50,601 nt of DNA, taken from assembly GCA_036381125.1 (NCBI GenBank), contig DASVDK010000141.1:1-50601 (forward strand), read 5' to 3'. Origin of the DNA: Thermodesulfobacteriota bacterium. Its GTDB lineage: Bacteria > DASVDK01. Below are positions 1,835 to 50,186 of the stretch, piece by piece. The number at the start of each line of letters is the position of its first letter. Positions within the stretch are counted from its first letter, which is position 1. Under the pieces are notes generated by a model. The model made no database searches. It had not been told where the DNA came from and was given only the letters and a program-made list of their open reading frames with translations. The position numbers were made by a program, and so were the translations under genes.

Positions 1835-2800
1835 CTACTCCCCGATCCCCCGCTGCCCCCGGTTCTTGATGGCCACCGCGCGCGTGATCCCGCCGCTGCC
1901 GTCGACGATCTTCGCGTTCAGCGAGACGTAGAACGCGCCGCGGGCCGGCAGGCGGCCGACGTTGATCACCTGCTCGTCCCAGGTCATCCCGTACTTGAGC
2001 CCGGCCACGTGGGTCGGCTGGCCGCCCTCGACGTAGCCCATGCTGGGGCTGTCGATGGCGAGGTGCTGGATCCCTTTCGAGTGGAGGTACTCCATCGTCT
2101 CGGGCGAGGGGGCCGGCCAGCCGGGCGCGCTCTTGAGGATGAGCGGCTCGAAGGCCAGGCGGTTGCCCTCCGGGAAGGGCTTGTAGTACCGGTCGGTGTA
2201 GCCCGAGTGGAAGACGACGATCTCGCCCGGCTGGAGGGCGCCGTTCGCCGCCTCCCAGTCCTGCACCATCTTCGGCGTGATGACCGGGCTCTTGCCGTTG
2301 TCGGCCTGATCGAGGATCGCCCGCACGTCGATCACCGCGGCCGGCCCCATCCACCGGGCCGGATCGACCTTGTCGCAGGTGGTGAGCCCCACGGGGCTCT
2401 CGAACGGCATGCCGCTGCCGGGCGGCGGGATGAAGTGCGCGGGGCAGTCGGTCTGCGTGCCGGTGTGGTCGTCGATCACGACCCGCTGGCCGTAGTACGG
2501 GAAGACGCTCTGGGCGAGGTTGTCGCCGTACGCCCCCTTGACCGGCTTGAACCAGTTGAAGGTCCACCGCTGGAACGGCGCGTGGGCCGGCCAGTGGGCC
2601 GGCATCTGCTCGGAGATGAGGACCGTCAGGTCCACCACCTCCGCCTCCTTCATCGCGTCGGCCATCATCTGGCCGACGCTGGCCCCCTGGGCGAGGGCCG
2701 CCCCCGGGCCCGTCCTCGTGCTGCTCCCGGCGACCCACCCGAGCCCCAGAGCGACGACGACGAGGCATCCGACGAGAGTCCTGCGGAGCGACGAGCGCAT
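1835..2800 (-). CDS. Cyclase family (kynurenine formamidase-like) protein with N-terminal signal peptide
   Basis: VVDLT, HTGTQTDCPAHF, GPAAVIDV, AIDSPS, GSGGITRAVA motifs; basic plus hydrophobic N-terminus. Confidence 0.85.
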   Translation of the reverse strand: MRSSLRRTLVGCLVVVALGLGWVAGSSTRTGPGAALAQGASVGQMMADAMKEAEVVDLTVLISEQMPAHWPAHAPFQRWTFNWFKPVKGAYGDNLAQSVFPYYGQRVVIDDHTGTQTDCPAHFIPPPGSGMPFESPVGLTTCDKVDPARWMGPAAVIDVRAILDQADNGKSPVITPKMVQDWEAANGALQPGEIVVFHSGYTDRYYKPFPEGNRLAFEPLILKSAPGWPAPSPETMEYLHSKGIQHLAIDSPSMGYVEGGQPTHVAGLKYGMTWDEQVINVGRLPARGAFYVSLNAKIVDGSGGITRAVAIKNRGQRGIGE

Positions 2801-11335: not shown

Positions 11336-11986
11336 ATGAGGACCATGCAGCCTCTCGACGCCATCCGGGAGCCGGGCATCGTCGCGATCGTGCGCCACGT
11401 CCCCGCGGACCGCATCGGGCCGCTCGCGCGGGCCCTGCAGGCGGGCGGCGTTCGTGCCATCGAGGTCACGCTCAACACCGAGGGGGCCATCGAGGCCATC
11501 GGCCGCCTCGCCGCGGAGCGTCCGGGCGACGTGGCGATCGGGGCCGGGACCGTGATGACGGCCGCGGAGGTGAACTCGGCCGTCGACGCCGGCGCCGCCT
11601 TCATCGTCTGCCCGCACACCGACGACGAGGTCATCGGCGCGGCCCGCGAGCGCCGCGTGCCGGTGATCCCGGGCGCCTACACGCCGAGCGAGATCGTCCG
11701 CGCCTGGCGCGTCGGCGCAGCCATGGTGAAGCTCTTCCCCGCCTCGAACGGCGGCCCGAGGTACCTGCGCGAGGTCCGGGCGCCGCTCGCCGACATCCCG
11801 ATCGTCCCGACCGGCGGGGTCGGCCTCGACACCGCCGCCGACTTCGTGCGGGCCGGGGCGGTGGCGATCGGCGTCGGCTCGTCGCTCACGCCGAGGGACC
11901 GTATCGCCGCGGGCGACTGGCAGGCCATCACCGACCTCGCCGCCCGCTTCGTCGCCGCGGTGCGCGAGGGGCGGGCTGGCTCGTAG
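11336..11986 (+). CDS. eda: KDPG/KHG aldolase
   Basis: IEVTL, GAGTV, TPSEI, VKLFPA, PTGGV motifs. Confidence 0.92.
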   Translation: MRTMQPLDAIREPGIVAIVRHVPADRIGPLARALQAGGVRAIEVTLNTEGAIEAIGRLAAERPGDVAIGAGTVMTAAEVNSAVDAGAAFIVCPHTDDEVIGAARERRVPVIPGAYTPSEIVRAWRVGAAMVKLFPASNGGPRYLREVRAPLADIPIVPTGGVGLDTAADFVRAGAVAIGVGSSLTPRDRIAAGDWQAITDLAARFVAAVREGRAGS

Positions 11987-12079
11987 CGCGCCCGGGCAGG
12001 GCGTCACCTGCGGCTTCATCGTCCCGGCGGGCACACGCCGTCGGCGCCGACGCTCCGCTCCGCGCAGGTCGTGGCGCAG

Positions 12080-12331
12080 ACCCCGCCTGACCGACGACGC
12101 GCCCGATCGCGTCCTCGCGCAGGCGGGTGAAGCGGTCCGGGCCGTCGAGCATCGGGTAGTGGCTCACGCCAGGCATCACGATGAGGTCGAACCGTGGCGC
12201 GTACCGGCGGGCCGCTCCGAGATCGGCCGGAAAGCGGTCGCCGTTGACGGCGACGACTCGCCATGGCCCGCAAGGTCCACGGCCCACCCGTGGAGGAGGA
12301 CGACGTCCGGCTCTCCGGCCCCCGCGACTAC
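12080..12331 (-). pseudogene. Internally deleted alpha/beta-hydrolase remnant
   Basis: GEPDVVLLHGW abuts AVDLAGHGES, then a frame change to the C-terminal MPGVSHYPMLDGPDRF; the nucleophile region is missing. Confidence 0.65.
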
Positions 12332-12471
12332 TCTTCGACCAGCATGAGCCCCAGGAGACCGGCGAGGACCGCCGCCAGCCCGAGCAGGCGCTCCGGGGAG
12401 ACGCCCCGGACGACGATGTCGAGCATCGCGGTCGCGCCCACCAGCATCCCCAACCTCGCCATGCGCGCCAC
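12328..12471 (-). CDS. Small hydrophobic (two-TM) hypothetical protein, about 47 aa
   Basis: GTG 12471 preceded by GGAGGGG; two hydrophobic segments; sigma54-type motif upstream. Confidence 0.5.
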   Translation of the reverse strand: MARMARLGMLVGATAMLDIVVRGVSPERLLGLAAVLAGLLGLMLVEE

Positions 12472-12516
12472 GCTCGCCCCTCCGTCCATCGCCGCGGTAT
12501 CGTCGCCGTACGGGGG

Positions 12517-12532
12517 AGCAGGGTTCATGCCA
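12517..12532 (-). promoter_or_regulatory. Putative sigma54 -24/-12 promoter
   Basis: TGGCATGAACCCTGCT (GG-N10-GC) about 45 bp upstream of the small membrane ORF. Confidence 0.5.
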
Positions 12533-13001
12533 GCGCGCAAACGCGCACCAGGCACGTGCGGCGCGCGGCGCGGGCCTCGCCGCGCGATTCAGGTCGAAAC
12601 GTCGATCGTTCAGGATGGAGCGGAGAGATGCGCATGGGCATCGAGATCTGCGGCTCTGAGATTCATCTGCGGCCAGCGCCGTCCCAAGCATTCGCGCCTC
12701 GCGGCCACGTCCTTGACATTCCACGCGCGCTCCTCCGCAAACGTGTAGCATCTCCCAGGATCCCTGGATACGCGTCGGACACCGAGGAAAGTCTGCGGTG
12801 ACGCCATGCCCCTGGCGGCTCCCCCGCGTTGCCGCGAGTCTTGCCCACCCCGTACACCTCGGCGCGATGGCGGGGCTCCGCTTGTCGACCGCGGACGTGC
12901 GGGCCCGCGCCAGGCGCCTTCCCGCTAGCGGCTCCTTTCGGCCGACCTGCGCTCTCGCGGGCCGGAGCGCTAGCTAGTCTGCTAGCCCACCCACGTTGCC
13001 C

Positions 13002-13037
13002 TTGACAGGGGCGGAAATTCCGTCCAATATTATTGGC
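13002..13037 (+). promoter_or_regulatory. Sigma70-type promoter overlapped by two palindromes; probably leaderless transcript
   Basis: TTGACA (13002-13007), 17 bp, CAATAT (13025-13030); palindromes CGGAA-A-TTCCG (13012-13022) and CCAATA-T-TATTGG (13024-13036); ATG at 13038 without RBS. Confidence 0.65.
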
Positions 13038-13679
13038 ATGAAAACGCCGCGGATCCCGACGGCCGAGGACGTTCTCCCGACAATAGACCCACTCCTCCGC
13101 GCAATCTATGCCGCGCTAGAGGCGGGAACGCAGTCGGCGCGAGACTTCTTCGATTCTTTGGGGCAGCCGATTGATCCGTCCCTGGCACCAGCGTTAGTCC
13201 GCTATCACGCCAAGCTGTATCTCGATTCGGCAGGCCATCAGGTATCGGTCGTCGAGTTTGAGCGCGAGCCACTAGCGAACAACGGCTTGTGCCTGCATAC
13301 GCCGGCGCACTCGATCCGTATCCTGAAGGCAGCCCTCAACGGGCGACCTCCGGTGCCTGGCCCCTCGAGGGCCAGAATAGCATTCTACAATCAGCAGCCA
13401 TATCTCTTCCCATTCATGGAAGAGGAGCTAGCCCGAGCTCCGCTGAACCTTCTCGTGCTCTGGGACGTGACCCCGGCGTACGCTCTTAGGAGCCTTTCCC
13501 TCGTTTGTCCGAAGTCCGGGGACACCACGCGCGAATCGGTCGACTGGCATTGGCGCGTGGCGCTGGATCATCCCGCACTGGCTGTCCCGGTGTCCGACGC
13601 GGGAACGAGCCCCGACGACGACCTCGACATGCGCCTTGACGTACCCCAGGACGACGCGGGCAGCGAGCCGGGTGCATGA
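13038..13679 (+). CDS. Hypothetical protein, candidate toxin partner of the XRE-IrrE protein
   Basis: 213-aa ORF whose stop overlaps the next start (ATGA); function inferred from context only. Confidence 0.7.
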   Translation: MKTPRIPTAEDVLPTIDPLLRAIYAALEAGTQSARDFFDSLGQPIDPSLAPALVRYHAKLYLDSAGHQVSVVEFEREPLANNGLCLHTPAHSIRILKAALNGRPPVPGPSRARIAFYNQQPYLFPFMEEELARAPLNLLVLWDVTPAYALRSLSLVCPKSGDTTRESVDWHWRVALDHPALAVPVSDAGTSPDDDLDMRLDVPQDDAGSEPGA

Positions 13680-14794
13680 TCAACGGCAATCGAGTTCGGC
13701 TCGCTCGCGAGCTGCGTGGACTAACGCAGACGGAGCTCGGACGTCGGGTAGGTCTTGCCCAACCGTCGATTGCTCAGGTCGAGGCGGGGCTCTTCGAGCC
13801 TTCTGACAGGGTACTCAAGCTGATTGCGCTTCAGACGGGATTCCCTCCGGCGTTCTTCCGTCGCACAGAGGACGCGGAGTTCCCAATGGGCTCTCTCTTG
13901 TTTCGCTCCCATGTAAGCGCATCGGCACGACTTCGGACTCAGGCGTATCAGCACGCAAGGATCATCTACCAAGTCATCATCGGCCTAGCCAGGCGCGTTC
14001 CGCTTCTTCCTATCGGGCTTCCCCGATTGAGTGAGGAACCTGGGGCTGCCGCGGCGATTGCCCGTAGCGCGCTTGGATTCTCACCAGAAACGCCGATCAA
14101 GAACCTTATCCGAGCACTCGAGCGAGCGGGCGTGCTCGTCATCGCATTGCCGACGGAAATAGAGGACGGCATTGACGCGTTCTCAGCCTGGGTGGGCGAC
14201 GATACGAAGCGCCCGGTGATCGGCGTTGTTCCGGATCGCCCGGGCGATCGGCTGAGGCTCAGTGTGGCGCACGAGGTTGGCCACCTCGTCTTGCACAGCA
14301 CGCCGCGTCCTCCTGGCAAGGAGCTTGAGGCTGAGGCGTTCGGCTTCGGAGCCGAGCTCCTCATGCCTGAAGCAGCTATGCGCGCCGAACTTGTTCCGCC
14401 GCTAACGCTGACCCACCTCTCGATGCTCAAGGCGCGGTGGGGAGTTGCTATCGCGGCGTTGATTCGTCGTGCACGGGATCTCGCCATCATCTCGCCTCGG
14501 CAGTACAGCTATCTCTTCGAGCAACTTGGCGCCAAAGGGTGGCGTACAAGGGAACCGGTACCGATCCCGGTGGAGAAGCCTCGCGCGCTCCGGAAGATGG
14601 CTGAGCTGGTCTACGGTTTGCCGATTGACTACCGGCGTATGGCTAACGACTTCGACCTGCCAGTTGGGATGGTCAGAGATATACTTGAAAATTACGCTGA
14701 TCGCGGAAACGGCCTGGAGCGGGCCACTCGCGGATCTCGTCCAAAGGTCCTTCCGCTTCGTTCATCTGAAGGAGATCGGACGGGGCGCGATTAG
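13676..14794 (+). CDS. XRE helix-turn-helix plus ImmA/IrrE-family Zn metallopeptidase
   Basis: ARELRGLTQTELGRRVG HTH; IDAFS; RLRLSVAHEVGHLVLH (HExxH); EAEAFGFGAELLMP. Confidence 0.93.
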   Translation: MINGNRVRLARELRGLTQTELGRRVGLAQPSIAQVEAGLFEPSDRVLKLIALQTGFPPAFFRRTEDAEFPMGSLLFRSHVSASARLRTQAYQHARIIYQVIIGLARRVPLLPIGLPRLSEEPGAAAAIARSALGFSPETPIKNLIRALERAGVLVIALPTEIEDGIDAFSAWVGDDTKRPVIGVVPDRPGDRLRLSVAHEVGHLVLHSTPRPPGKELEAEAFGFGAELLMPEAAMRAELVPPLTLTHLSMLKARWGVAIAALIRRARDLAIISPRQYSYLFEQLGAKGWRTREPVPIPVEKPRALRKMAELVYGLPIDYRRMANDFDLPVGMVRDILENYADRGNGLERATRGSRPKVLPLRSSEGDRTGRD

Positions 14795-14860
14795 TTCAAG
14801 TGGTGCAGGCAGCCTCACCTTCGCCAAGGACGCCGGGCGAGTGCCCGATGTGGGAGCCAT

Positions 14861-14934
14861 TGGCTGCGAGCGGAGGACTCGAACCTCCACTTCTGGGGTC
14901 AAAGCCCAGCGGCCTCCCGTTAGCCGAGCCCGCA
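14861..14934 (-). tRNA. tRNA-Gln (anticodon TTG), CCA encoded
   Basis: Cloverleaf read by eye: acceptor TGCGGGC/GCTCGCA, D-arm GGC/GCC, anticodon arm CTGGG-CTTTGAC-CCCAG, T-arm GGAGG-TTCGAGT-CCTCC, G73, CCA; U1-A72 as in bacterial tRNA-Gln. Confidence 0.9.
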
Positions 14935-15128
14935 ATGAAAGCGCCGCCACTTGGAACCTGGAAGGGCTCCTCGACCTTCTGGTCCGTCACCCCGGCAGTC
15001 GTCCCGCGCCCTGGGATCGCGGCGTTGACACGACCGCGCTGTTCTCGCTGCGCGGCAAGGATCCACGTATTCACGTTACGTCGCGCGGCCATGAGGACTG
15101 TACTGCAGGATGGGGTGCGAGGCGCAGG

Positions 15129-15302
15129 CTACCGCGACTTTCGCCCGGACTGCGCAGTGTGTGTCTTCGCGGCCTCGATCACGCGCGTTCCGGCGCCGAC
15201 GCGCTTGAGTGCGTCGATATAGTCGGCTTTGATCTTGTCCATGCTTGCCGACTTAGGGGTCTGGGTCGCTGAGCCCGACTTCTTCTCATTTGGCTGCGAC
15301 AT
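15129..15302 (-). CDS. 57-aa basic hypothetical protein (absent from the ORF track)
   Basis: MSQPNEKKSGSATQTPKSASMDKIKADYIDALKRVGAGTRVIEAAKTHTAQSGRKSR; strong AAGGAGG RBS overlapping the upstream TAA. Confidence 0.65.
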   Translation of the reverse strand: MSQPNEKKSGSATQTPKSASMDKIKADYIDALKRVGAGTRVIEAAKTHTAQSGRKSR

Positions 15303-15315
15303 GCTTCCCCCCTCC

Positions 15316-16062
15316 TTACCTCGCCTGTTTACAGAGTACCGCTATTGTGCTGGCCGTTTGCGCCAAGAGGCCCCTCACATAGCCATCGCTGTTCCAGAGA
15401 GCCCCGAAGGTCTCACCGGGGGCGTCCACAGAAACGCAACCGATAAACTTGCCTTTGGCATCGAGAATCGGAACAGCTCCAACGGCACCGTAGTGCTTAA
15501 CCTTTTGGAACTCCTCATACGACAGGCCTATGCGCTCGTCAGGCGCCAACGCCCTCCACTGCTCTTTCGTACAGTATCTAAGCTTACCATGGACCTTCTC
15601 AAGGTCCAAGCCATATTCCTGTCTCCGTTCCCAGCACTTGCCGATCACCCCCTTTCCGCGTGTCCATCTTATGTGCGACGGCGTGTGTATGGCGACGCTC
15701 TCCCTCGCGATTCGGTAGAGAATCGGCTCCCATGGGCGCCGAAGCGGCCGCCGGACGAGAAAGGCGTTCACGCTCAGCTCGATCGCCACATCCCAATCTA
15801 GCTTCAGGACTCGTACGATCAGATACAGCGCTCCTTTCAGGCTCTGACGGACGTCGTTCTCAAATTGGAGCCGACGGCTCAGCCGGCGGTCGACGAAAGC
15901 CGCAGCCCAAGGCTCAACGATTCCAACGGCCAGCCCGGCTACAGCCGAGTGTACGACGTACTCGGGCATCGACACGATCGGCCATTTGATCTGATGCGCG
16001 GCGAGCGCGGCCATGGATACCGCGCCTACCGAACCGCACAACAATCGGAGCCAAGTGAACAT
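15316..16062 (-). CDS. Membrane protein with two N-terminal TM segments and a C-terminal GAF-like domain
   Basis: Two hydrophobic helices, then GKGVIGKCWE and AVPILDAKGKFIGCVSVDA GAF-type signatures; no enzymatic output domain. Confidence 0.75.
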   Translation of the reverse strand: MFTWLRLLCGSVGAVSMAALAAHQIKWPIVSMPEYVVHSAVAGLAVGIVEPWAAAFVDRRLSRRLQFENDVRQSLKGALYLIVRVLKLDWDVAIELSVNAFLVRRPLRRPWEPILYRIARESVAIHTPSHIRWTRGKGVIGKCWERRQEYGLDLEKVHGKLRYCTKEQWRALAPDERIGLSYEEFQKVKHYGAVGAVPILDAKGKFIGCVSVDAPGETFGALWNSDGYVRGLLAQTASTIAVLCKQAR

Positions 16063-16221
16063 CCGCCATGTCCCCAAGGACGATGCCGAAAGCTCTCTAG
16101 AAGCCTCGCCTTTCCGATCGGTGCCATCGGTTGGACTCTCGCACAGAGTGGGACTCGTGTCACTCGGTTTTTTGCTGAACGAGCAATGTCGGTGTGGGAA
16201 CTGCTCGACATCCCCTCGGTA

Positions 16222-16322
16222 CCCAGAGCCCTCGCCCAGCCGCCAGCGCCTTCCGCCGCGCGGCCTTGAAATGGTCCTAGTGGTGGTAGGGGAACCCGCG
16301 CGTATACTGGAAGCTGTAGTAG
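16222..16322 (-). pseudogene. Possible C-terminal remnant of a thermonuclease (SNase-like) gene at the IS21 target site
   Basis: YTRGFPYHH*DHFKAARRKALAAGRGLW resembles the SNase C-terminal helix (A..A.RGLW); in-frame TAG. Confidence 0.4.
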
Positions 16323-16384
16323 TGTCAAGCGACAGGAGAGCCTAACCCCCTTACGTCAGTAAATCTGACCCCCTCGGATCGGGC

Positions 16385-17163
16385 TCAAGTCCTCGTCGTG
16401 GTGACTCCGAAGAGCCCCGCCTTGCGCTTCTGCTTGAGTCGATAGCTGTCGCCCTGGATGAGCAGCGTATGGCTGTGGTGCAGCAGGCGGTCGAGGATCG
16501 CGGCCGCCAGCACCTCATCGCCGAAGACCTGCCCCCATTGCGGCACGAGCTGGTTAGTCGTGATGAGCAGGCTGCCCCGCTCGTAGCGTCGGGCCACGAG
16601 CTGGAAGCAGAGATGGGCGCTGCGCCGCTCGAAGGGGAGGTAGCCGAGCTCATCGATGATGAGCAGCTTGGGCTTGGCGAAGAAGGTCAACGTGTCGGCC
16701 AGCTGCCCCTCGCTCTCGGCCTTGGCCAGTCGGGCCAGCAGCGCCGTCGCAGACACGAACAGGGTCGAATGCCCGGTTTCCACCGCGGCGCGGCCGAGGG
16801 CGATGGCCAGATGGGTCTTGCCGACGCCGGGGGGCCGAAGATGAGCACGTTGTCGGCGCTCGCGATGAAGCGCCCCGTGGCCAGCTCGCGGACGAGCTTC
16901 TGGTCGATCGCCGGCTGGAAGCGGAAGTCGAACTCCTCGAGCGTCTTGACCGCGGGGAAGTGCGCGATCTGGATGCCCATGGCGACGCGCTTGCGCTGCT
17001 TGGCGGCGACCTCCTCGTCGACGACCTGGGCGAGGAAGTCGAGGTAGGCGGGCTGACTCCTCGCCGCCTCGGCCAGGAGCGCATCGAGCCGGAGGGCGAC
17101 GTGGCCCAGCCGCAGTCGCCCGAGGGCGTCGACGACCCGCGCGTGTGTCAGCTCGACACTCAT
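16385..17163 (-). pseudogene. istB: IS21 helper ATPase IstB, frameshifted in Walker A
   Basis: KTLEEFDFRFQP...NVLIFGPP in one frame, GVGKTHLA...IIDELGY...AILDRLLHH in another; one base missing in the run at 16829-16834 (could be a sequencing error). Confidence 0.88.
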
Positions 17164-18443
17164 CGCCCCGCCTCCTCGACCACGGCGGCGTAGTCGGCCA
17201 GCTGCCGGCCGAGGGCCGCCAGCGGGCTCGCCCCCGCCTCAGGGAGGGCTGGCGGCATCGGCCGCCGCCACAGCCCGGCGTAGTGGGCCGGGTCGGTGAC
17301 CCGGACATGCGGCTCGCGGGCGCGGACGTGCTCGGCCACCAGGGCCGCGCCGTGATAGATCCGCACCGTCGTCTCCCCGACGACGACCTCGACCCGGTCG
17401 CGCACCAGCCGGTGCGGCACGCTGTAGCGGACGGTGTCGACGTCGACCAGGGCGTCGGCGGCCACCCGGCGCACGAGCCGCCGCTCACGCGTCGGCAGCG
17501 GGCGGGCCGGCAGCGGGCGCAGCGCTGCCTGCTCGGCGCGCGTGAAGCGGTCGGCGGGCCGCTCGTGGGTCGTGCCGTGGAGGCGCTGATCCGCCTCGGC
17601 CATCCACCGGGCGAGGTGGGCCTCGAGGGCGGCGAGGCTGTCGAAGGTCCGGCCGGCCAGGCCATTGTGCTTGACGTAGCCGATGCCCGACTCGATCTTG
17701 CCCTTGGTGCGCGCCCGGTACGGGGCACAGGCGCGGGGCTCGACGTCCCAGTCGCGGCAGAAGGCGAGGAAGCTGGGATGGAAGCGGACGGCGCCCGTCA
17801 CACGGTCGCGCTCGAGGACCAGCGGGCGGGCGTTATCGACCAGGAGCGTCCGGGGCACCCCGCCGAAGTGCCGGAAGGCGGCGGCGATCCCCTCGCGCCA
17901 GTCGTCCTGGCGCTCAGCCAGGAAGCGGCGGACGAAGAGCCGGCGTGAGTAGCCGAGCACCGTGACGAGCAGATAGACGCGCACGCGCTGGCCGGCGATC
18001 AGGACGCCCTGCTCCCCGAAGTCGACCTGCAGCTGGGCGCCGGGGGCGGTCTCGAAGCGCACCGTGGCGAGCGCGGCCGCCCGCTGCTGCCGACGCCGCT
18101 CGGCCACGGCCCGCTGCACCGTCCGGACACTCACCCACACGCCCTGGTCCGCCAACAGCCGCGTCACGACCACCGCATTGCCGGCGGCCGTCGTCTCGAA
18201 GAGGCGGACGGCCTCGGCCTGGGCGGCGGGATCGAGGCGCCGGCGTCCGGGCCGGGTCTGCACCTGGGCCGCCGGCCCGCCCCGGAGATAGCGCCGGACT
18301 GTATTACGCGCGACGCCGAGCGCCCGGGCGATCCGCTTGGCGCCCCAGCCCCGCTCGGCCAGGATCCGCACCTGGCGCACCACCTCCGGCTCGATCATCG
18401 GCACCTCCGGCAGAGGTGCCACCGTACCCCCTCGCGTCTCCAT
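17160..18443 (-). CDS. istA: IS21 transposase IstA
   Basis: N-terminal HTH, RFETAPGAQLQVDFG, LLVDN, RARTKGKIE, RLHGTT; GGAGGAGG RBS. Confidence 0.95.
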   Translation of the reverse strand: METRGGTVAPLPEVPMIEPEVVRQVRILAERGWGAKRIARALGVARNTVRRYLRGGPAAQVQTRPGRRRLDPAAQAEAVRLFETTAAGNAVVVTRLLADQGVWVSVRTVQRAVAERRRQQRAAALATVRFETAPGAQLQVDFGEQGVLIAGQRVRVYLLVTVLGYSRRLFVRRFLAERQDDWREGIAAAFRHFGGVPRTLLVDNARPLVLERDRVTGAVRFHPSFLAFCRDWDVEPRACAPYRARTKGKIESGIGYVKHNGLAGRTFDSLAALEAHLARWMAEADQRLHGTTHERPADRFTRAEQAALRPLPARPLPTRERRLVRRVAADALVDVDTVRYSVPHRLVRDRVEVVVGETTVRIYHGAALVAEHVRAREPHVRVTDPAHYAGLWRRPMPPALPEAGASPLAALGRQLADYAAVVEEAGR

Positions 18444-18745
18444 CTCTGCCTCCTCCGGTCGACGAGGGGGTCAGGATTACTGTCGTCAGGGGGATCGTAT
18501 TACTGGCGCCTGTCAAGTAGTTCGTGTACCGCCCGCGACTACCAACTCAGCGAAGTCAGGATCGTTGGGCAGGATCAGTCAGGATCAGTTTAGGGGACAA
18601 GCCGCCAGAGGACGTCCCATGCCGGGCCTACCCGCACTGCCCAGCTTCCCCTGGGCCTATGGTGGTTGAGGGATACGGGGGAACTGGAGCGGGCTGAAGA
18701 TGGCGCAGCCCGCGACGCAGCCGTAGCAGCTGCGTGCGCTACCAG

Positions 18746-19118
18746 CTAACCATCTTCGACCATATCCGGGGAGTCTTCCGGAAATCCTGAGGGCATCATC
18801 AACGATTCGCGCGTTCGCCACGGTACCCGGTTCGGCTCCGGTTGCTCCGTCCACTCCAGGAGCCACCGCCGAGTCACGTGTGGGTACCCACCCGGCTGTG
18901 TCCCATCGATGGAGGGCCTCTTGAGGTGCTCGGCGACGGCCTTGAGCCACGTGTAGGCCCCGATGACCTGCTTGCCGACGTCCTCGCCCAGGCCGAGCTC
19001 GGCACCCGTCGCGTGGTAGACGGTGATGCAGCCTAGCTTCGTCCGATCCCCGAAGACGTGGAAGACCTTGGGCTCTCTGTACTTCGATATCAGGTCGTGG
19101 ATGGCCGCCGCGTAACTC
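18746..19118 (-). pseudogene. C-terminal fragment of an unknown island gene fused in frame to the IS256 transposase
   Basis: About 120 aa of ordinary composition ([23 protein letters not shown]...) continuing past the expected transposase end; no start of its own. Confidence 0.4.
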
Positions 19119-20420
19119 CAGGCGGCCGCTGCGGCGGGCGCGGCCGGCTCCAGCACGGTCATGTCGAGATACCGCCGGTCGCCCCAGATCGTGGTGACCT
19201 CGAGCGCCACGGCGGTCACCAGGCGCAGCGCGCTCGCCCGGTCCGGGAACGCCCCGACGGCCTTCACCCGGCGCTGCACCTCACCGTGCAGCCGCTCGAG
19301 GGTGTTGGTCGTGCGGATCCGGAGCCAGTGGGCCTTCGGGACGGCGTAGAACTGGGTGGCGGCGGTGCAGCCGCCCTCCAGCACCGCCATCGCCTCAGGC
19401 AGCTGGGGGCGCCAGCGTCGGAGCACCGCGTCAAGCCGCCGCTTCGCCTCGGCCAGACTCGGCGCGTCGAAGAGGGGGCGGAGTTCCCGCGCCAGGCGGG
19501 CGCGCAGGCGCGGGGGTGTCTGCGTGAGGACGTTGCGGAGCAGATGCCCCGTGCACCGGTGCTGGCGGGCCTCCGGGAGCCACCGGCGCACCGCCGCGGC
19601 CAGGCCCTTGTGGGCGTCGGCGATGATCAGCTGGACGCCGTGGAGCCCGCGGTCCACCAGCTGCGTGAGCAGCTCGCTCCAACTCGCCTCCGCCTCCGAC
19701 GGCCCGAGGGCGACGCCCAGGAGCCGGCGGTGCCCATCGGGGCCGACGCCGTAGGCGACCAGCGCCGCCACGTGCTCGACCGTCCGCGCCCATCGGGCCT
19801 CGAGCAGCGTGGCGTCGAGGTAGAGGTACGCGATCGGCTCGGCGATCGGCGCCGTCCGCAAGGCCGCGATCCGCTCGTCGAGCCGCTTCGTCACCCGGCT
19901 CACCGTCGAGCGGCTGACGGCCTCGCCCAAGAGCGCCTCGGTCACCGTCGCCATCTTCCGCTGGGAGACGCCCTGCACGTAGGCTTCCGTGATCGCCGCA
20001 TCGACATCGCCGGTGCGCCGCGGGTAGCGGCCCAACACCTCGCCGGCGCTGCCTCCCTCGCGGGCGCGGGGGACCTGGAGCTCGACCAGGCCCATCGACG
20101 TCATCAGGCGTCGCAGGTAGGTCCCGTTACGCACGTCCTTGCGCTCGCCCAGGCGCTGCCAGCGCCCGGCGCCGACCAGCTCCCGGATCTCCTCCTCGAG
20201 CAGCGACTCGAGGGTGGCGGATGGCCCCCCGAAAGAGCGCCCGCAGATCGGTGCGGATCGCGTCTTGCGTCGGAACCTGAACCTCGCCAGACTCGTCCAT
20301 GGGAAGCCTCCTCCCCCTCGCCGCCAGCGAGGGCCGGTCTCGAGAGAACCTTGGAGGAGCTTCCCCCTTCCCCAGGCAGTCGTCCAGTACTGCCTTTTAC
20401 ACAATTATCGGGACACCACC
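19119..20420 (-). mobile_element. IS256-family element, frameshifted and lacking its downstream end
   Basis: Terminal sequence GGTGGTGTCCCGATAATTGTGTAAAA at 20395-20420; ATG 20300 with RBS, frameshift near 20218; motifs [27 protein letters not shown]; no second inverted repeat seen. Confidence 0.88.
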
Positions 20421-40411: not shown

Positions 40412-41902
40412 TCACCTCCCGCTGGCGGACATGGCGGCCTGGACCGCGGCCTCGAGCCGCTCGATCTCGTCGTCGGTCAGCTCCGGGAACTCGGCGCGCC
40501 GGGTCCCGGCGAGCCGGCCGCCGTTGCCCATGCAGAGCTGGACGAAGCGAGACGCCCGACGGTCGGGCATGTCGACGATCTCCTTGACCGCCTCGAGCGC
40601 CCGATCGTACACGGTGACGAAGTCCAGCTCCGCCTCGAGGTCCCGGCGCACCGTGTCGGCCACCCGATCGTACAGGTACTCGGCCAGCGGCGTCGCGTCG
40701 AAGTACCGGTAGAGGTCCGCCGTGTCGTTCTCGACGACCAGCCGCCGCTCCGGCGTGAAGTGCCAGTCGATGCACTCGAAGAGCGGCTTCGAGAAGGTCT
40801 CGAGTGCCGCATCGTAGCTGCGGCGATCGCGCAGGATCGCCGCCGACACCGGGAAGATCGTGCCGGGCGGGCTCATCCCTCGGCGCGCGAGGACATGGTG
40901 GATCAGGAACCGGTGGATCCGGCCGTTGCCGTCCTCGAACGGGTGGATGAAGACGAACGCGAAGGCCGAGACCGCCGCCGCGACGACCGGATCGACGAGG
41001 TCGTCGGCTTCCAGACGGCGCGTAAGGCGCATCCAGGCCGCCATGAGATCGGGAACGTCTTCGGGGCGTGGTGGGATGAACTCCACGGCCTCGCGGTACC
41101 CGGCCGCCACGCCGCCCACCCAGTTCTGGGAGTCGCGCCAGTCGCCGGCCGCGTACCGCGGATCGACGATGACGCCCTGCAGCCGGACGATGGCCGCCTT
41201 GTCCGCGGGGTCGAAGTCGAGTGCGGACCTGAGCGCGGCGACGAACCGCTCGGTCCGGCTCGGGCTCGGCGTCTCCCCCTCGATCGCGAAGGAGGAGCGA
41301 GTCTCCTTCGTATAGAGGTACGCGACCGCCCGCGCCAGCACGGCGGGATCGTACCGGGCGGTCAGGAGGCGGGCCTCGTCGCCGAGGCGCGCGGCCATCG
41401 ACGTCTCGAGCCGGCGGGTGCGCCGGACGACCGGGCAGAGTCCGGCGTCCCCGAGCAGGTTGTCGTTGACGCGGTGTCTGGGGGAGCGGCGCCGGGTCGC
41501 GACGACGTGCCGGTCGGGGTCGAGCGCGTCGACGTAGTTTCCCGTGGTCACGTCGGGAAGGTCGAGGGTGCGGCCCGTGAACGTCTCGTAGAAGAACCAG
41601 GTGCGGCGCGCGAAGGCACCCGTCGGCTCCCGGCGCACCCAGGCGACGATCTCGGTGGGGTCGATGGCCTCGAGCGCCGCGACGAGGACGCGAAGATCGA
41701 CCGGTTCGTGGCGGAGCGCGAACCGCAGGTGAGAGACGGTGGACTCGCCGGGGTCGTACCGCTGCGGAAAGAACTCGACGACGTGGCTGTCGTGGATCTC
41801 CGTCCGGCGCGCACCCGCGACGAGGTAGCTCCGGACCGCCGGAGGCGGAACCCTGAGTCGCAGGCGCTCGCGAAGCGCGGCCTGGCCCAACGCGGTGCTC
41901 AT
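40412..41902 (-). CDS. Fic-family protein with N-terminal extension
   Basis: Canonical HPFEDGNGRIHR; ETRSSFAIEGE inhibitory-helix-like motif. Confidence 0.92.
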   Translation of the reverse strand: MSTALGQAALRERLRLRVPPPAVRSYLVAGARRTEIHDSHVVEFFPQRYDPGESTVSHLRFALRHEPVDLRVLVAALEAIDPTEIVAWVRREPTGAFARRTWFFYETFTGRTLDLPDVTTGNYVDALDPDRHVVATRRRSPRHRVNDNLLGDAGLCPVVRRTRRLETSMAARLGDEARLLTARYDPAVLARAVAYLYTKETRSSFAIEGETPSPSRTERFVAALRSALDFDPADKAAIVRLQGVIVDPRYAAGDWRDSQNWVGGVAAGYREAVEFIPPRPEDVPDLMAAWMRLTRRLEADDLVDPVVAAAVSAFAFVFIHPFEDGNGRIHRFLIHHVLARRGMSPPGTIFPVSAAILRDRRSYDAALETFSKPLFECIDWHFTPERRLVVENDTADLYRYFDATPLAEYLYDRVADTVRRDLEAELDFVTVYDRALEAVKEIVDMPDRRASRFVQLCMGNGGRLAGTRRAEFPELTDDEIERLEAAVQAAMSASGR

Positions 41903-42093
41903 CGTGGGGACTCCCTTACGGCCGTGGCAATTTGCTTATTTTGACGCATTGTGATGGAAAATCAATTACAGAGCCGGCTCGGAAGGGCAGGACAGGACTT
42001 TACGGGGTCTCCAGGGATGACAAGGCTCTTATCCGGCAGGAAATACAATTACGGCGACACCCATTGATGGCATATCGATTACATCGCCATCCG

Positions 42094-43419
42094 TCAGTCG
42101 TCCTCGTCCCGCGCCGCGCCGACGAGCGCCTCGATGGTCGACCGCACCTCGCGGTCCCCGATGCGGTCGGGGAAGCAGAGGCGGATGATGTCGCGGCGAT
42201 CGCGGGCAAGGCCCTCGACCGCGGGCGAGAGGTCGCGGATCTCGACGAAGGCCGGCGTCCGGGCCGGGCGATGGACCGCGATGGTCCCGCCGGGGGAGGC
42301 CTCGGAGTCGGCGCCGTAGGTGCGGTAGGGGGTGTCGGCCGCGCGGTCCACCTGGAGGTAGTAGCGCGGGTCCCCCCCCGCCTGCCGGATGACCTCGCCC
42401 GCCTCGGCGGCGAGCGCCGGCAGGTCCTGGTACCGTGCCGGCGGGACCTCGACGGTCTTGAAGAGGCGCCGGTCGAGGAGGCGCGACGCGAGGTCGGCCA
42501 GGACCGGGTCGGGATCGGCCGCCCACACGCGCATGGCGTGGAGGAGCGTGGCGTCGTCGAGCGCCAGGAAGTCGCGCGGCGCGAGCGAGGCCCCGTCGCC
42601 GAGGGCGCGCCCCAGGGGCGAGCCGGCCGCCGGGAAGGCGAGCGCGCCGCCGCGCGCGAGGTCGACGGCCCGGCCGATCAGCGCCCTGAGCATCACGTCC
42701 GCCGCGCGCACGGTCTTGTGGAAGTAGACCTGCTGGTACATGTGGTGGCGCGCCTGGAGGTAGGCGACCACCGCGAGGTGCCCCTTCTCGTGGACGACGA
42801 TCCGGTCGCCCGCGGGGTCGACCGCGAGCGTCTCGAGGATCCACTCGAGATCGTACTGCCCGTAGGTGACGCCGGTCATGAGCGAGTCGCGCAGGAGGTA
42901 GTCGAAGCGGTCGGCGTCGAGCTGCGACGCGACCAGGTCGGCCAGGAACCGCGGCCGGCCGCCGTGACGCATCCGCTCGGCGACGGCCGCCGGGAGCCGC
43001 GGGTCGAGCGCCGCGAGCCGGCGGTGGAGGGCGCCGTCGGGGTCCTCCACGAGCCGGACGCTCCATCGCTCGTGCCGCTCGCCGACGATGTCCTCGACGA
43101 CGTGGCTGAACGGCCAGTGGCCGACGTCGTGCAGCAGCGCGGCGGCGGCGGTGACGAGCCGGTCCCAGGGGTCGATGGCGTGGTCGCGGCCGAGGCGCGA
43201 GAGGATGCGTCGGGCGACGTGCATGACGCCGACCGAGTGGCTGAAGCGGCTGTGGTCGGCCCCGGCGTACGCGTAGACGGCCAGGCCGAGTTGCCGCACG
43301 CGGCGCAGCCGCTGCACCTCGGGGCAATCGACGAGGTCGATGAGCAGCCGGTCCTCGCGATCGCCCCGGTCGAGGGCGATGATGTTGTGGACCGGATCAC
43401 GGTAGATCTGCGTCGGCAT
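42094..43419 (-). CDS. HD-domain phosphohydrolase, SAMHD1/YwfO-like
   Basis: RDPVH, QRLRRVRQLG, HSRFSHSVGV, LLHDVGHWPFSH, QLDADRFDYLLRD, MYQQVYFHKT; start overlaps the sbcC stop (TGATG). Confidence 0.92.
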   Translation of the reverse strand: MPTQIYRDPVHNIIALDRGDREDRLLIDLVDCPEVQRLRRVRQLGLAVYAYAGADHSRFSHSVGVMHVARRILSRLGRDHAIDPWDRLVTAAAALLHDVGHWPFSHVVEDIVGERHERWSVRLVEDPDGALHRRLAALDPRLPAAVAERMRHGGRPRFLADLVASQLDADRFDYLLRDSLMTGVTYGQYDLEWILETLAVDPAGDRIVVHEKGHLAVVAYLQARHHMYQQVYFHKTVRAADVMLRALIGRAVDLARGGALAFPAAGSPLGRALGDGASLAPRDFLALDDATLLHAMRVWAADPDPVLADLASRLLDRRLFKTVEVPPARYQDLPALAAEAGEVIRQAGGDPRYYLQVDRAADTPYRTYGADSEASPGGTIAVHRPARTPAFVEIRDLSPAVEGLARDRRDIIRLCFPDRIGDREVRSTIEALVGAARDEDD

Positions 43420-46400
43420 CACACCACCCGGTAGACGGACCCGTACTCGGGGTGCTTGGTCACCTCGATCCGGGCCGGGAAGCGGTCCTTGAGGTCCTCG
43501 AGGTGCGTGATGACCAGGATCTTCGCGAAGTCCCCCTCGACGGCCTGGATCGCCTCGACGACCTTCTGCTTGCCGCTGCCGTCCTGGGTGCCGAAGCCCT
43601 CGTCGACGACGAGCGTCTGCAGGCTCGCTCCCGCGCGCCTGGCGAGCAGGCGCGACAGGGCGATCCGCAGCGCGAAGTTCACCCGGAAGGCCTCGCCGCC
43701 CGAGAAGGTCTCGTAGGGCCGCGTCCCCTGCTCGTCCGAGATGCGGATCTCGAGCGTCTCGGCGACGCCGCCGGTCTTCTTGTCCCGCTGCGTCTCGAGC
43801 TTGATCCGCATCGCGTAGTCGGTGAGGCGGCCGAGCAGGCGGTTCGCTTCGTCCTCGATCTCGGGCAGCGCGTTCTCGATGATGATCGCCTGGACGCCGT
43901 TGCGCCCCAGGATCCGCGCGAGGTCCGCGTACGTCCGCCGCGTCTCGCCGAGCGCCTGGACCTGCGCGCGGGCCGTGTCCAGCTCGCGCTGCTTCCGGCC
44001 GAGCTCGGCGAGCCGCGCATCGGCCCGCCCCACCCGCTCGCGCAGGTCGCCCACCTCGCGACGCCGGTCCGCGACCCGCGCCTCGAGCGCGGCGATCTCG
44101 CGCTCCACCTCCGGCAGCCGCGCCGCCTCGGCCAGGCGGGCCGCCCGCTCCTCGGCGAGCCGTGCGGCCAGCTCGCGCGCGGCGCCCGCGTCGGCACGCG
44201 CCTCGGCCTCGGCGGCGCGGGCGCCGGTCACCTCGTGGACGGCCTGCGCCAGCTCGGCGGCCCGCCGCTCGAACGGCTCGTGCTCGGCGAGCGCCCTGCG
44301 GCAGGCGTCGTGCTCGGCGGCGTCGTAGGCCACCTCGGCGATCTCCTCGGCGATGCGCGCCAGCTCGGCTCGCTCGGCCTCGGCGTACGCCTCCGAGGCG
44401 AGCGCGCGGTCGAGGTCGGCCAGCTCCGCCGCCACCGCCGCCAGCTCCTCCCGCAGGCCGGCCGCGTCGCGTCCGGCCTGCTCGAGCCTGGCGGCCCGCA
44501 TCTCGAACGGGCGCATGTCGGCCACCCGCTCGCGCACCCGGTCGTGCGCCGCGCGGTCGTAGCCGAGCCCGGCAAGGGCCGTGCGCGCTTCGGCGAGGGC
44601 TGACCGGACCTCCGGCGCGATCGCGCCGTCGGAGAGGGCCGCGTCGGCGGCACGCACCCGCTCGGCCAGCTCGGCCAGCTCGCCGGCCGCCGCCTCGGCG
44701 TCGGCCACCGCGGCCGCCACGCGGGAGCGCTCCTGCTGGAGCGCCTCGCGCGCCGCCAGCTCGCGGCCGAGCCGCACGTACTCCTCGCGCAGCCGCCGGA
44801 CCTCCCGGTCGAGCGCCGGGGCGATCCGCTCCAGCTCGGCGAGCTTCGCGCGCCGCGGCTCGAGCTCCTCGCGGGTCATCCGCTCCACCACGGCCTCGCG
44901 CCGATCGTCGGGAAGCGGCTGGTCGCAGAGCGGGCAGTCCCCCGCGGCCTGCCGGAGGTCCGCGAGGCGCGCCTCGACGGCCTGGATCTCGCCGGTGAGC
45001 CGCGTGACCTGGTCGGGGATGGCCTCGAACCGCGTCCGCGCCGCCGTGCCCTGCTCGAAGACCTCCTCGCGCCGACGCGCCGCGACGTCGAGCGCCGCGA
45101 GCTGGCGGTCGATCGCCGCAAGCCGGGCGCGTTGCTCGCCGGCTCCCTCGGCGCGCCGCGTCAGGTCGGCCAGACGCGTGGCGAGCCGCTCGCGCTCGAG
45201 CCGCCGCGCCATCTCCGCCTCGGCCACCCGGCGCTCGAGGTCAGCCGCGAGGCTCGTGAGGCGCAACGACTCCTCGAGCCGTCCGGCGAACGCACGCTCC
45301 TCGCCTTCGGCGGCGCGGAGGGCCTCGAGCCCGGCCTCGATCTCGTCGCGCGCCGCCAGGAGCCCCTCGGCCTCGGCGAGGCGGCCGGCGAGCCCGGCGT
45401 GGGCCTCGGCCACCGTCGCGCGCCGCACCTCGATCCGGCTCCTCGCCTCGGCGACCGCGGCTGCGAGCCGGGTCCGCCTGGCGTCGAGGGCCCGCTCGCG
45501 CTGGAGGCGCTCGGCCATCGCCTGCTCGGCCGCCCTCAGCTCGCGCAGGCGGGCGAGCCCGGCCTCGATGCCCGGAGCCTCCGCGACGACGCGCTCGTAG
45601 GCGGCCACCCGGGCCGCCTCTCGTGCGGCCCGCGCCTGCGACTCGTCGGCCCGGCGCAGCGCCTCGTCGATCCGCTCGCCGAGCCTCGCGGCGTCGGCCT
45701 CCGCCTGGGCGAGCGCCGCGCGGGCGGCACGGGCGGCCGCGAGCGACGCCTCGTCGGCCGCCAGGGCCGCCTCGGCCGCAGAGAGGTCCGCCGCGAGGCG
45801 CTCGCGCTCGGCCTCGGCCGCCGGGCGGTCGGCCAGCGCCGCCTCGAGCGCGGCGATGCTACGGTTCGCGGCGGCTACGACCTCCTCGGCCTCCCGCTGC
45901 TTCGCCCGGGCCCTCGCCTCGAGGTCGTCGAAGACGCCGAGGGAGAGGATCTCGCCGAGGATCCGCTTGCGCTCGGCCGGCGTCTTCTGCGTGAAGGCGT
46001 CGGCGCGCCCCTGCAGGAGGAACGAGGCGTTGACGAACGTCTCGTAGTCGAGGCGCAGGACCTCGGCGATCCGCTCCTCGGTCTCGCGGATGCCGGTGCC
46101 GGTGAGGGACCGGAAGGCGCCGGTCGCCGGGTCCCGGACCTGGAACTGGAGGTCGGAGACGCCGGTCTTGCGCGAGATGTCGCGCTTGCGGATCACGCGG
46201 TAGACCGCGCCGTCCAGCTCGAACTCGAACTCGACCCACATCTCCGTCTGGCCGCGGCGGACCAGGTCGTCGGCGCCGGCGCGCGCCTTGCCGAAGAGGC
46301 TCCAGGTGATGGCGTCGAGGAGGGCGCTCTTGCCGTGGCCGTTGTCGCCGGTGAGGCACGCCACGTGGATCGCGGAGAAGTCGAGCGGCTCGACCCGGTC

Positions 46401-49602: not shown

Positions 49603-50186
49603 GACCGGACCCTCCGGAGGACCGACGAGAGCGTCTCGTAGTCGTCCTTGAGCAGGCGGGCCAGCTCCTTGCCGGCCCGCACGAGGAACCCGCGGTCGCC
49701 GCCGTGCGCCTCGAGGGCCTGCCGGAGCGCCGCGGCGATCAGCTCGTCGGCCGGCGCGCGGCCCGGCGCCCTGGCCCCGGCCAGGAGCAGCCGCAGGAAG
49801 CCGAGGTCGGCCGTCACCCGCTTCACCTCGAGCGCCTGGAGCGGGTAGACGAACGCGTGGATCCGCGGCGGCTTGGTGGGGAGCTGTGCGCGCACGACGT
49901 CCTTGCCCTTGTAGCCGACGATGACCGCCTCGAACTTGGTCTTGAGCAGCTCGAAGATCTGCGGCTGCTCGGCGCGCAGCTCGAGCTCCGACCGGTGGTA
50001 GGCCACGGCCAGCCGGTTCGGCTCGAGGCTGTGCGTGTACGCCGCGAAGACCACGCCGTAGACCGTCTCGTCCCGCCCGTCCACGCGCACGAAGGCGCCG
50101 AACGCCGGCGACTCGTAGAGCAGGTGCGCCTGCGCGATGAACTCGGTGTTGGACGAGCCGATGACCTCGCCGATCTCGCCGTTCAT
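49599..50186 (-). CDS. Stand-alone HAS-barrel protein
   Basis: IGEVI, PAFGAFVRV, EQPQIFELL, LPTKPPRIH; ATGA overlaps with both nurA and herA. Confidence 0.75.
   Translation of the reverse strand: MNGEIGEVIGSSNTEFIAQAHLLYESPAFGAFVRVDGRDETVYGVVFAAYTHSLEPNRLAVAYHRSELELRAEQPQIFELLKTKFEAVIVGYKGKDVVRAQLPTKPPRIHAFVYPLQALEVKRVTADLGFLRLLLAGARAPGRAPADELIAAALRQALEAHGGDRGFLVRAGKELARLLKDDYETLSSVLRRVRS

Follow-up and report, generated by a model that had tools for sequence, protein, structure and literature searches.

Two kinds of described toxin-antitoxin (TA) system come close to the genes considered here. In Rosmer systems, a Zn-peptidase antitoxin accompanies a toxin of unknown function (Millman et al., 2022, 10.1101/2022.05.11.491447). 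The NetFlax study reports that protease-containing RmrA antitoxins pair with different RmrT toxins, among them the RmrTA pair of Gordonia phage Kita (PMC10440598). The same study describes toxFtsL(D9) from Gelidibacter mesophilus, a 281-aa toxin that combines transmembrane (TM) helices, an FtsL-like helical region and a GAF domain; this toxin is neutralised by the Panacea-domain antitoxin PanA and causes filamentation and lysis in Escherichia coli (PMC10440598). In our literature searches toxFtsL(D9) was the sole described protein with an architecture of TM helices, stalk and GAF domain, and the available passages of a lactococcal plasmidome paper did not contain the gene pair presented below. 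Here we compare these systems with a 50,601-nt stretch of DNA (contig DASVDK010000141.1 of GenBank assembly GCA_036381125.1, Thermodesulfobacteriota bacterium), hereafter called the window, in which a gene for a membrane-anchored GAF protein and a 57-aa open reading frame (ORF), the mini-protein, lie beside a tRNA-Gln(UUG) gene and a pair of Rosmer genes. Within the assembly (genome G000), which comprises 4.33 Mb in 382 contigs and has 73.2% G+C, the window corresponds to contig C141.

We found that the GAF gene and the 57-aa ORF are a real, conserved two-gene unit, which is widespread and represents an undescribed variant of a barely known kind. This pair is the useful result and the part of the locus worth following; the Rosmer pair is ordinary. 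The region as a whole is quite probably a mosaic of horizontally acquired DNA that holds three units working independently of each other. A preliminary description of this DNA had placed the five parts (the two genes of a TA-like pair, the GAF gene, the small ORF and the tRNA) in a more AT-rich segment beside two insertion sequence (IS) elements. This layout proved accurate with respect to the ORFs, the tRNA recognised by ARAGORN and Rfam, the G+C content of 0.60-0.65, and the adjoining IS21 and IS256-type elements.

The predicted structure makes it clear that the N-terminus of the 253-aa protein, which anchors it in the membrane, is followed by a GAF fold. In its AlphaFold2 model (pLDDT 84), helices at residues 2-27 and 37-90 are followed by an alpha/beta domain, and the top Foldseek matches were GAF domains with a probability of 1.0 (5w10 at E 3.7e-6, 1f5m, 3ci6 and 2qyb; 83 matches at E <= 0.001). 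At default thresholds the protein had no match in Pfam, NCBIfam or PADLOC; Pfam GAF and GAF_2 failed to match even at E <= 10, and a sequence search of the PDB with the family profile returned nothing below E 0.05. Among 77 family members, weak matches at E <= 0.01 were found to Pfam GAF in six and to GAF_2 in three, and PHROGs matched none. A crude hydropathy scan detected a single TM-like segment in the window copy (residues 44-62) and, across the 77 members, at least two such segments in 46, one in 29 and none in 2. Thus, the name 2TM-GAF, under which the preliminary description had introduced this protein, is right about the GAF domain by predicted fold, though not by Pfam, and is half supported with regard to the two TM segments, since this copy has one.

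The GAF family is large. An exhaustive profile search gave 1,020 representative clusters at E <= 0.001, 795 at E <= 1e-10 and 240 at E <= 1e-30. Most of the 150 clusters listed have lengths of 230-280 aa, and in the Atlas they are labelled 'hypothetical' or 'GAF domain-containing' and come mostly from Actinomycetota. Among the positions conserved in the family are W138, G141-K142-G143, G146, C148, W174, A201, P203, G213 and D218. The distribution is patchy; the family was present in six of 401 Actinomycetota genomes.

A candidate mini-protein gene accompanies the GAF gene consistently. We gathered 33 loci with GAF homologues; 23 came from metagenomes, 9 from genomes and 1 was viral. Three of them end within the GAF gene and one (L043) fell below the threshold of the script and was dropped, leaving 29 that could be evaluated. 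In all 29, an ORF of at least 30 aa on the same strand has its start in the interval from 10 nt ahead of the GAF stop codon to 250 nt past it. We aligned 23 non-redundant ORFs from these loci with the window ORF (L022, L028, L031, L035 and L042 were left out as near-duplicates and L039 because it is cut off), and the 24 sequences share the core [FY]-h-x-x-L-R-x-x-G/D-x-x-x-h-h-x-h-A. In the window, the Shine-Dalgarno sequence of the small ORF overlaps the stop codon of the GAF gene, which indicates that translation of the small ORF is coupled to that of the GAF gene.

Some points weigh against the conclusion that these ORFs are one family. Mean column identity in the alignment is only 19%, and ORFs of at least 30 aa are frequent by chance in high-G+C DNA. 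For the latter reason the similarity was tested in two ways. First, a hidden Markov model (HMM) built without the window sequence ranked the window ORF 3rd among the 53,522 six-frame ORFs of at least 30 aa in the genome; its score, only 14.8 bits, is to be set on the other side of the balance. Second, we turned to five further GAF loci that had not been used in the HMM. The ORF directly behind the GAF gene matched at E 6e-9 and 9e-8 in two of them (L057 and L058); the other three gave two weak matches (both at E 0.41, and maybe copies of one sequence) and one locus without a match. The 57-aa ORF had no match in Pfam, NCBIfam or PADLOC. When the mini-protein profile was compared with the PDB, it matched de novo designed helical proteins only, and we rejected these matches as a reflection of idealised helix-turn-helix composition, not of homology.

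A model of the GAF protein in complex with the mini-protein, built with the alignments of both, reached an ipSAE of 0.74 (0.72, 0.74 and 0.74 in the individual runs), and the best of 3 controls reached 0.00. The mark used for such models is reached by 116 of 157 solved complexes and by 2 of 215 mismatched pairs. The partner was modelled with a pLDDT of 63 or more, and contact agreement between the runs was 93% or higher. In the modelled interface, residues 21-48 of the mini-protein pack on residues 75-90 and 233-251 of the GAF protein. The model supports binding of the mini-protein to the stalk of the GAF protein, which we predict with high confidence. Seen in this way, the hairpin would clamp two helices, one that precedes the GAF domain and runs into it (75-90) and one at the C-terminus (233-251). 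In other GAF proteins the stalk is the surface for dimerisation and signalling. Together, the candidate ORF in 29 of 29 loci, the shared core, the HMM ranking and the complex model bear out the view, already taken in the preliminary description, that the GAF gene and the small ORF belong together.

We propose that the GAF protein and its partner may form a TA-like pair of the toxFtsL(D9) type, a tentative reading that falls only slightly short of being probable. The GAF protein would act as a membrane- or division-directed effector, and the mini-protein would neutralise it by occupying the stalk helices. Toxicity, neutralisation and any role in phage defence are what we infer for the pair. The window protein has the toxin-type order of helices followed by a GAF domain, and hydrophobic N-terminal segments were found in 75 of the 77 family members.

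The genomic contexts of the pair are mixed, as judged by a Pfam scan of 136 neighbouring ORFs from 17 annotated loci. Some copies are in mobile settings: beside resolvase, AAA_25, terminase and WhiB genes in L012, on a viral contig (L020/L042), and beside AAA_25 and ParB-methylase genes in L015. Others lie among housekeeping genes, for instance PGK/TIM in L011 and EF-G and Sua5 in L013, and such neighbourhoods make up about half of the annotated GAF loci. Two loci deserve mention in their own right. In Cellulomonas biazotea (L013:5028-7201), the GAF/mini-protein pair lies between a full-length Sua5/YrdC gene and a fragment that matches positions 82-178 of the Sua5 profile; it looks as if the pair had been inserted with partial duplication of its target. 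In L038 (8426-9445), a metagenome contig rich in hypothetical genes, a DUF4238 protein is encoded about 3.4 kb from the pair and falls below the PADLOC mark of E <= 1e-8. DUF4238 has been listed among candidate defence genes.

Several of these results weigh against a TA or defence role and have to be set beside a different explanation, in which the GAF protein is a benign membrane sensor, for instance of a small ligand in the GAF pocket, with the mini-protein as its small regulatory or adaptor subunit, so that the pair is neither TA nor defence. GAF domains are classical small-molecule sensors, and the fold matches include GAF domains that bind cAMP, nitrate and methionine sulfoxide. Many copies stand singly among housekeeping genes, and no DNA-binding antitoxin domain can be recognised in the mini-protein. 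Nor is there an enrichment of known defence genes nearby: at E <= 1e-8, PADLOC matched 2 of 103 neighbouring ORFs, a generic FtsK-type ATPase and a ParB-methylase. Furthermore, tblastn with the GAF protein found one weak record among 50,697 cultured phage records (MT835568, 30.6% identity over 47% of the query) and none in 72,556 plasmids; no Panacea gene is adjacent to the pair in the window or in the 17 annotated loci, the one SocA_Panacea gene seen being 3.5 kb away in L018; and the likeness to toxFtsL(D9) is one of described architecture. On the other hand, a benign sensor does not readily explain why the GAF protein has no output domain besides its membrane anchor, why the family is so patchily distributed, or why some copies are found in phage- or plasmid-like surroundings and on a viral contig. 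Additionally, the window pair came on foreign DNA, and the same architecture is that of a validated toxin in Gelidibacter mesophilus (PMC10440598). We therefore consider the benign sensor unlikely, though it deserves attention, and keep the TA-like pair as our working proposal.

The preliminary description had proposed that the five parts may form an undescribed defence or stress cassette with its own tRNA, and had named independent cargo as the alternative. We ran the co-occurrence comparison on which that proposal turned, and on the computational side it speaks against the cassette. No tRNA gene was found in the 33 GAF loci (192.7 kb) or in the five further ones (0 of 38), and none of the 33 had a tblastn match to RmrT, RmrA or the small ORF at E <= 0.05. 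RmrA-type genes are present in 21 of the 401 Actinomycetota genomes; none of the 401 has both the RmrT and the GAF family, and the sole genome with an RmrA-like gene and a GAF gene carries them on different contigs. Within 1.5 kb of the RmrA-type gene, a tRNA was found at two of the 21 Actinomycetota loci (Glu and Ser, never Gln). Like the window tRNA, these two tRNAs converge on rmrA (the one for Glu belongs to the unpublished genome G377), and the RmrT locus L055 has no tRNA. The Rosmer pair and the GAF pair are each found alone and complete elsewhere. This is the picture expected of islands landing beside tRNA genes, not of a system that uses a tRNA. These results support the view that the five parts are not one cassette, and independent cargo is the alternative they favour.

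A single functional cassette, in which the extra tRNA-Gln(UUG) is a working component that serves the Rosmer pair, the GAF pair or both, for instance as a spare or a decoy where a toxin or phage attacks tRNAs, would fit several features of the locus. All five parts are packed within 3.1 kb of one low-G+C block, and the genome has another tRNA-Gln(UUG), which makes the window copy supernumerary. The tRNA is co-directional with the small ORF and lies 194 nt downstream of it, with no terminator-like site detected between them; read-through from the GAF operon could thus co-transcribe the tRNA in this one island, to judge from the arrangement of the genes. A contig from another sample spans the tRNA to the small ORF with 1 mismatch and therefore shows that this arrangement is not an assembly artefact of a single sample. 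The lack of a terminator-like site also counts against independence of the units. The co-occurrence counts point the other way, the two tRNA-bearing RmrA loci of 21 being about what island insertion beside tRNA genes would lead one to expect, and the predicted fold of RmrT holds no hint of a tRNA-directed enzyme. The spacer between the tRNA and the small ORF showed no unusual RNA structure (z = -0.32). Taken together, we regard the single cassette as extremely improbable. Hardly better is a combined reading, in which the tRNA would be read through from the GAF/mini-protein operon as a built-in spare (restoring CAA decoding after a tRNA-directed attack, or buffering an island toxin) and the pair would be a new, widespread, membrane-acting abortive-infection module whose hairpin caps the GAF stalk. 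That the GAF/mini-protein pair is a new TA-like or defence class without any link to the tRNA is much more likely than this combined reading, and is a possibility that we advance with some reserve. The negative result matters in itself: a functional link should not be deduced from the mere fact that a tRNA and defence-like genes lie close together on an island.

Table 1. Features of the window discussed in the text (positions count from the first letter of the window)
Feature	Position	Strand	Description and basis
Low-G+C (~60-65%) foreign block	12300..16345		Between degraded alpha/beta-hydrolase gene and IS21 element; composition profile, GC3, divergence of sister contig
Promoter-like site TTGACA-18-AATATT	13002..13031	+	Sigma-70-like; consensus scan, 10/12 matches; pattern match only
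rmrT, Rosmer toxin candidate	13038..13679	+	213 aa (227 aa from TTG 12996); PADLOC PDLC03939
rmrA, Rosmer antitoxin	13676..14794	+	372 aa; N-terminal XRE helix-turn-helix, M78/ImmA-IrrE Zn-peptidase with HEVGH, C-terminal region
tRNA-Gln(UUG)	14861-14934	-	Intact, CCA encoded; ARAGORN; Rfam RF00005 56.2 bits against a gathering score of 29
57-aa GAF partner (mini-protein)	15129..15302	-	Basic, probably disordered N-terminus; conserved helical hairpin (~residues 21-48)
Shine-Dalgarno AAGGAGG	15311..15317	-	Overlaps TAA stop of GAF gene; ends 8 nt before ATG of small ORF; read from sequence
Membrane-anchored GAF protein	15316..16077	-	253 aa from TTG 16077; 248 aa from ATG 16062
Promoter-like site TTGACA-16-TATACG	16301..16328	-	Upstream of GAF gene, just inside IS21 end; read by eye
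IS21-family element	16346-18493	-	Bounds the block; 31-nt inverted repeats, 87% complementary; Pfam rve/Mu-transpos_C_2, IstB_IS21
istA of IS21	17160-18443	-	Pfam
IS256/Mutator-type transposase gene	18746-20404	-	Pfam Transposase_mut, E 1.4e-97; single copy in assembly

The tRNA-Gln(UUG) gene is intact, as the preliminary description had stated; both ARAGORN and Rfam find it, and its CCA end is encoded. Its 3' end faces rmrA at a distance of 66 nt. The genome has two tRNA-Gln(UUG) genes, the window copy and one on contig C346, which are identical at 54 of 74 positions, plus a tRNA-Gln(CUG) gene on contig C326. We propose that the second tRNA-Gln(UUG) would most simply be a landmark or passenger of the island insertion and not a working part of either neighbour. 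This proposal faces a competing explanation, in which the window tRNA is the organism's native gene, a hot spot at which foreign DNA has gathered on both sides, and the C346 copy is the extra one. The window tRNA resembles the tRNA-Gln(CUG) of the genome at 57 of 74 positions, being close in the acceptor stem and D-arm, compared with 45 of 74 for the C346 gene, and the sister species has the CUG gene with 100% conservation. Nothing closer to the window tRNA was found in 301 Actinomycetota genomes (best 75-79% identity, in a list that includes the unpublished G116 and G122), and it points its 3' end at the Rosmer pair, an orientation shared by the tRNAs of both other tRNA-bearing RmrA loci. The window tRNA may therefore be native rather than imported.

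Other observations argue for an imported window tRNA. The flanks of the window tRNA have a low G+C content on both sides (0.60 and 0.63 within 500 nt), whereas those of the C346 tRNA have 0.69-0.70, and at a distance of about 0.8 kb from the C346 tRNA the sequence shares 95% identity with the sister species. The only transposase or recombinase families among the window ORFs scanned were the transposases of IS21 and the IS256-type element, with no integrase at the island, and 25-nt and 16-nt patterns from the 3' end of the tRNA, with up to 3 mismatches allowed, matched the tRNA itself alone in the 50.6-kb window, so that no att-like repeat is present. The same two negatives, no integrase and no att-like repeat, leave the tRNA unproven as an integration landmark and thus also count against the proposal that we prefer. 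The tRNA region had no blastn match in phages. The sister-species assembly contains neither tRNA-Gln(UUG) gene and breaks at the edge of the island, and for this reason synteny cannot decide between a native and an imported tRNA. On balance, a native window tRNA is a credible second choice, and a landmark or passenger of the insertion is the reading that we retain.

The + strand pair is, from its genes and their arrangement, a complete RosmerTA system, and it adds an ordinary member to a defence family that is already known. The preliminary description had recognised a TA pair with helix-turn-helix (HTH) and IrrE domains; the PADLOC check that we ran identifies RmrT and RmrA, and assigns nothing to the GAF protein or the 57-aa ORF. 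The upstream ORF matches the RmrT model PDLC03939 (E 4.3e-12, with positions 5-201 of the 212 in the profile covered) and belongs to no Pfam or NCBIfam family. The product of rmrA matches Pfam HTH_3 (E 2.8e-10) and Peptidase_M78/IrrE (E 8e-14) and the PADLOC RmrA model PDLC03953 (225.6 bits, E 2.8e-67, profile positions 6-355 of 373), as well as 13 further RmrA models. The HExxH metal-binding motif is present in its translation as HEVGH within LSVAHEVGHLVLH. The two genes overlap by 4 nt (ATGA), with the toxin gene upstream. The start of rmrT is most likely ATG 13038, because the TTGACA-18-AATATT site lies just before it and the gene call of the collection is 213 aa; if this site is a promoter, it would yield an rmrT mRNA that is leaderless or has a very short leader.

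The RmrT family PDLC03939 is rare. It was found in 1 of the 401 Actinomycetota genomes, and a word-based search gave three relatives. In that Actinomycetota genome an independent RmrT/RmrA pair has the identical gene order and the same 4-nt overlap; the gene beside it encodes a type I restriction specificity protein (HsdS), as read from its translation without a family scan. The predicted fold of RmrT has a pLDDT of 68, and a wide structural search ranked the restriction endonucleases NaeI (Z 5.7), SfiI (5.4) and SwaI (5.3) at the top, with values that fall below the level the tool treats as meaningful. Foldseek gave no match to the model at E <= 0.001, and the invariant K97 lies in no evident (D/E)xK motif. 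A restriction-endonuclease-like fold is thus weakly hinted at by the model, and we mention it as a lead only. By analogy with published Rosmer systems, RmrA, with its XRE-HTH and ImmA/IrrE Zn-peptidase domains, would hold the toxin RmrT in check, and infection or stress would free RmrT and abort the infection.

The block that carries these genes differs in composition from its surroundings. G+C content is 0.60-0.65 from ~12,500 to 16,500, compared with 0.70-0.77 on either side and 0.732 for the genome. At third codon positions (GC3) it is 0.64-0.79 in the four island genes and 0.96-0.98 in the adjoining host genes, which marks the block as foreign DNA. CAA accounts for 6 of the 26 Gln codons in the island genes, compared with 5.2% genome-wide; this higher use mirrors the lower G+C of the island genes and provides no more than a weak reason for retaining a UUG tRNA. 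The host genes that flank the block are housekeeping genes of sugar catabolism, encoding an Edd/IlvD-type dehydratase, a PfkB kinase, a KDPG (2-keto-3-deoxy-6-phosphogluconate) aldolase and a ROK kinase. A contig of the sister species matches the window up to ~12,262 and then diverges before it ends at ~12,330. The left border of the island is a degraded alpha/beta-hydrolase gene (window 11928-12750, - strand). Its G-H-S-M nucleophile elbow is kept in the sister species; the window has a deletion at that place, followed by divergence.

We were not able to reconstruct an empty site from the sister genome. Apart from the end of its contig at the island edge and its lack of either tRNA-Gln(UUG), its best ROK homologue is 38% identical. 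Four public DNA runs from three studies contain short, near-identical contigs of island pieces, and no RNA run is listed among the public runs that contain such pieces. Joints from ~11.95-12.2 kb to ~19.5-20.9 kb in the public runs were considered as an empty site and were not counted, since the one joint with a stated flank has only 21 nt on its shorter side and the others are given only with a few unmatched letters between their sides.

The right side of the block is bounded by the IS21 element. Its istB gene is split in two frames (window 16385-17163, - strand): the N-terminal 158 aa (16687-17163) correspond to positions 3-102 of the IstB profile, and the C-terminal half, with Walker-type and DNA-binding parts, is in another frame and ends at 16385. 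The split gene is either a frameshifted pseudogene or an assembly error. The ORF of the IS256/Mutator transposase extends ~145 aa past the Pfam domain into DNA of lower G+C (18746-19180, - strand); the extension looks like read-through from the IS end into the remnant of another island gene. The promoter-like site upstream of the GAF gene, which was read by eye, is absent from the consensus scan, as its second hexamer does not end in T.

Some observations concern the window and the genome more generally. Further along the window (40412-43422 and 47866-50228) are genes for a Fic/DOC-domain protein, an HD-domain protein and a HerA-type helicase (DUF87 plus HAS barrel), which may be other defence- or TA-related genes. 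ARAGORN found five tRNA-Ala(CGC) and two tRNA-Arg(GCG) genes in the genome, which is unusual. The search for relatives returned one genome of the same genus, the remainder being labelled 'same domain', and the lineage thus looks very sparsely sampled.

How, then, does the locus compare with known systems? The + strand genes have the marks of RosmerTA: an antitoxin with an ImmA/IrrE (M78) Zn-peptidase and an N-terminal HTH, a variable and otherwise unannotated toxin, adjacent overlapping genes, and matches of both to PADLOC models. They differ from the RmrTA pair of phage Kita in the toxin. The Kita toxin D5 is membrane-depolarising (PMC10440598), whereas the window RmrT is soluble and of a rare family, with a predicted fold that weakly resembles restriction endonucleases. 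The tRNA recalls genomic islands at tRNA genes, in that a foreign gene pair abuts the 3' end of an intact tRNA and two of the 21 other RmrA loci have the same convergent arrangement. Unlike tRNA-targeted islands, the window block has neither an integrase nor a direct repeat of the tRNA 3' end, and the 5' side of the tRNA is foreign as well.

The GAF protein is similar to the 2TM effectors of cyclic-nucleotide defence, that is, the 2TM-SAVED effectors of CBASS and the TM effectors of Pycsar. In both cases the protein joins a small membrane anchor to a domain of the nucleotide-sensor type and has no enzymatic output, and one structural neighbour of the GAF protein in the ESM Atlas is a cluster with a CAP12/PCTIR TIR domain (TM-score 0.66 by query). 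The differences are that the window protein has a GAF sensor instead of a SAVED or cyclic nucleoside monophosphate-binding domain and that its conserved neighbour is the mini-protein. At E <= 1e-5, Pfam found no CBASS- or Pycsar-type cyclase or nucleotidyltransferase in the island or among the 136 neighbouring ORFs of the 17 loci. A PF04199 'Putative cyclase' match is present at window 1835-2800, about 12.5 kb away and outside the GAF operon.

The comparison with toxFtsL(D9):PanA concerns both members of the pair. That system is a two-gene unit in which a toxin of ~250-280 aa, with TM helices, a long alpha-helical stalk and a GAF domain, has a neutralising partner, and the window protein has the same architecture and a predicted binding partner. 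The difference lies in the partner, which is a Panacea-domain protein in D9 and a helical hairpin of ~57 aa in the window. If the GAF protein is toxic and the mini-protein neutralises it, the hairpin would be a new type of antitoxin for the only described membrane-GAF toxin, toxFtsL, and the pair would be a simple setting in which to study the control of a membrane effector by a GAF sensor.

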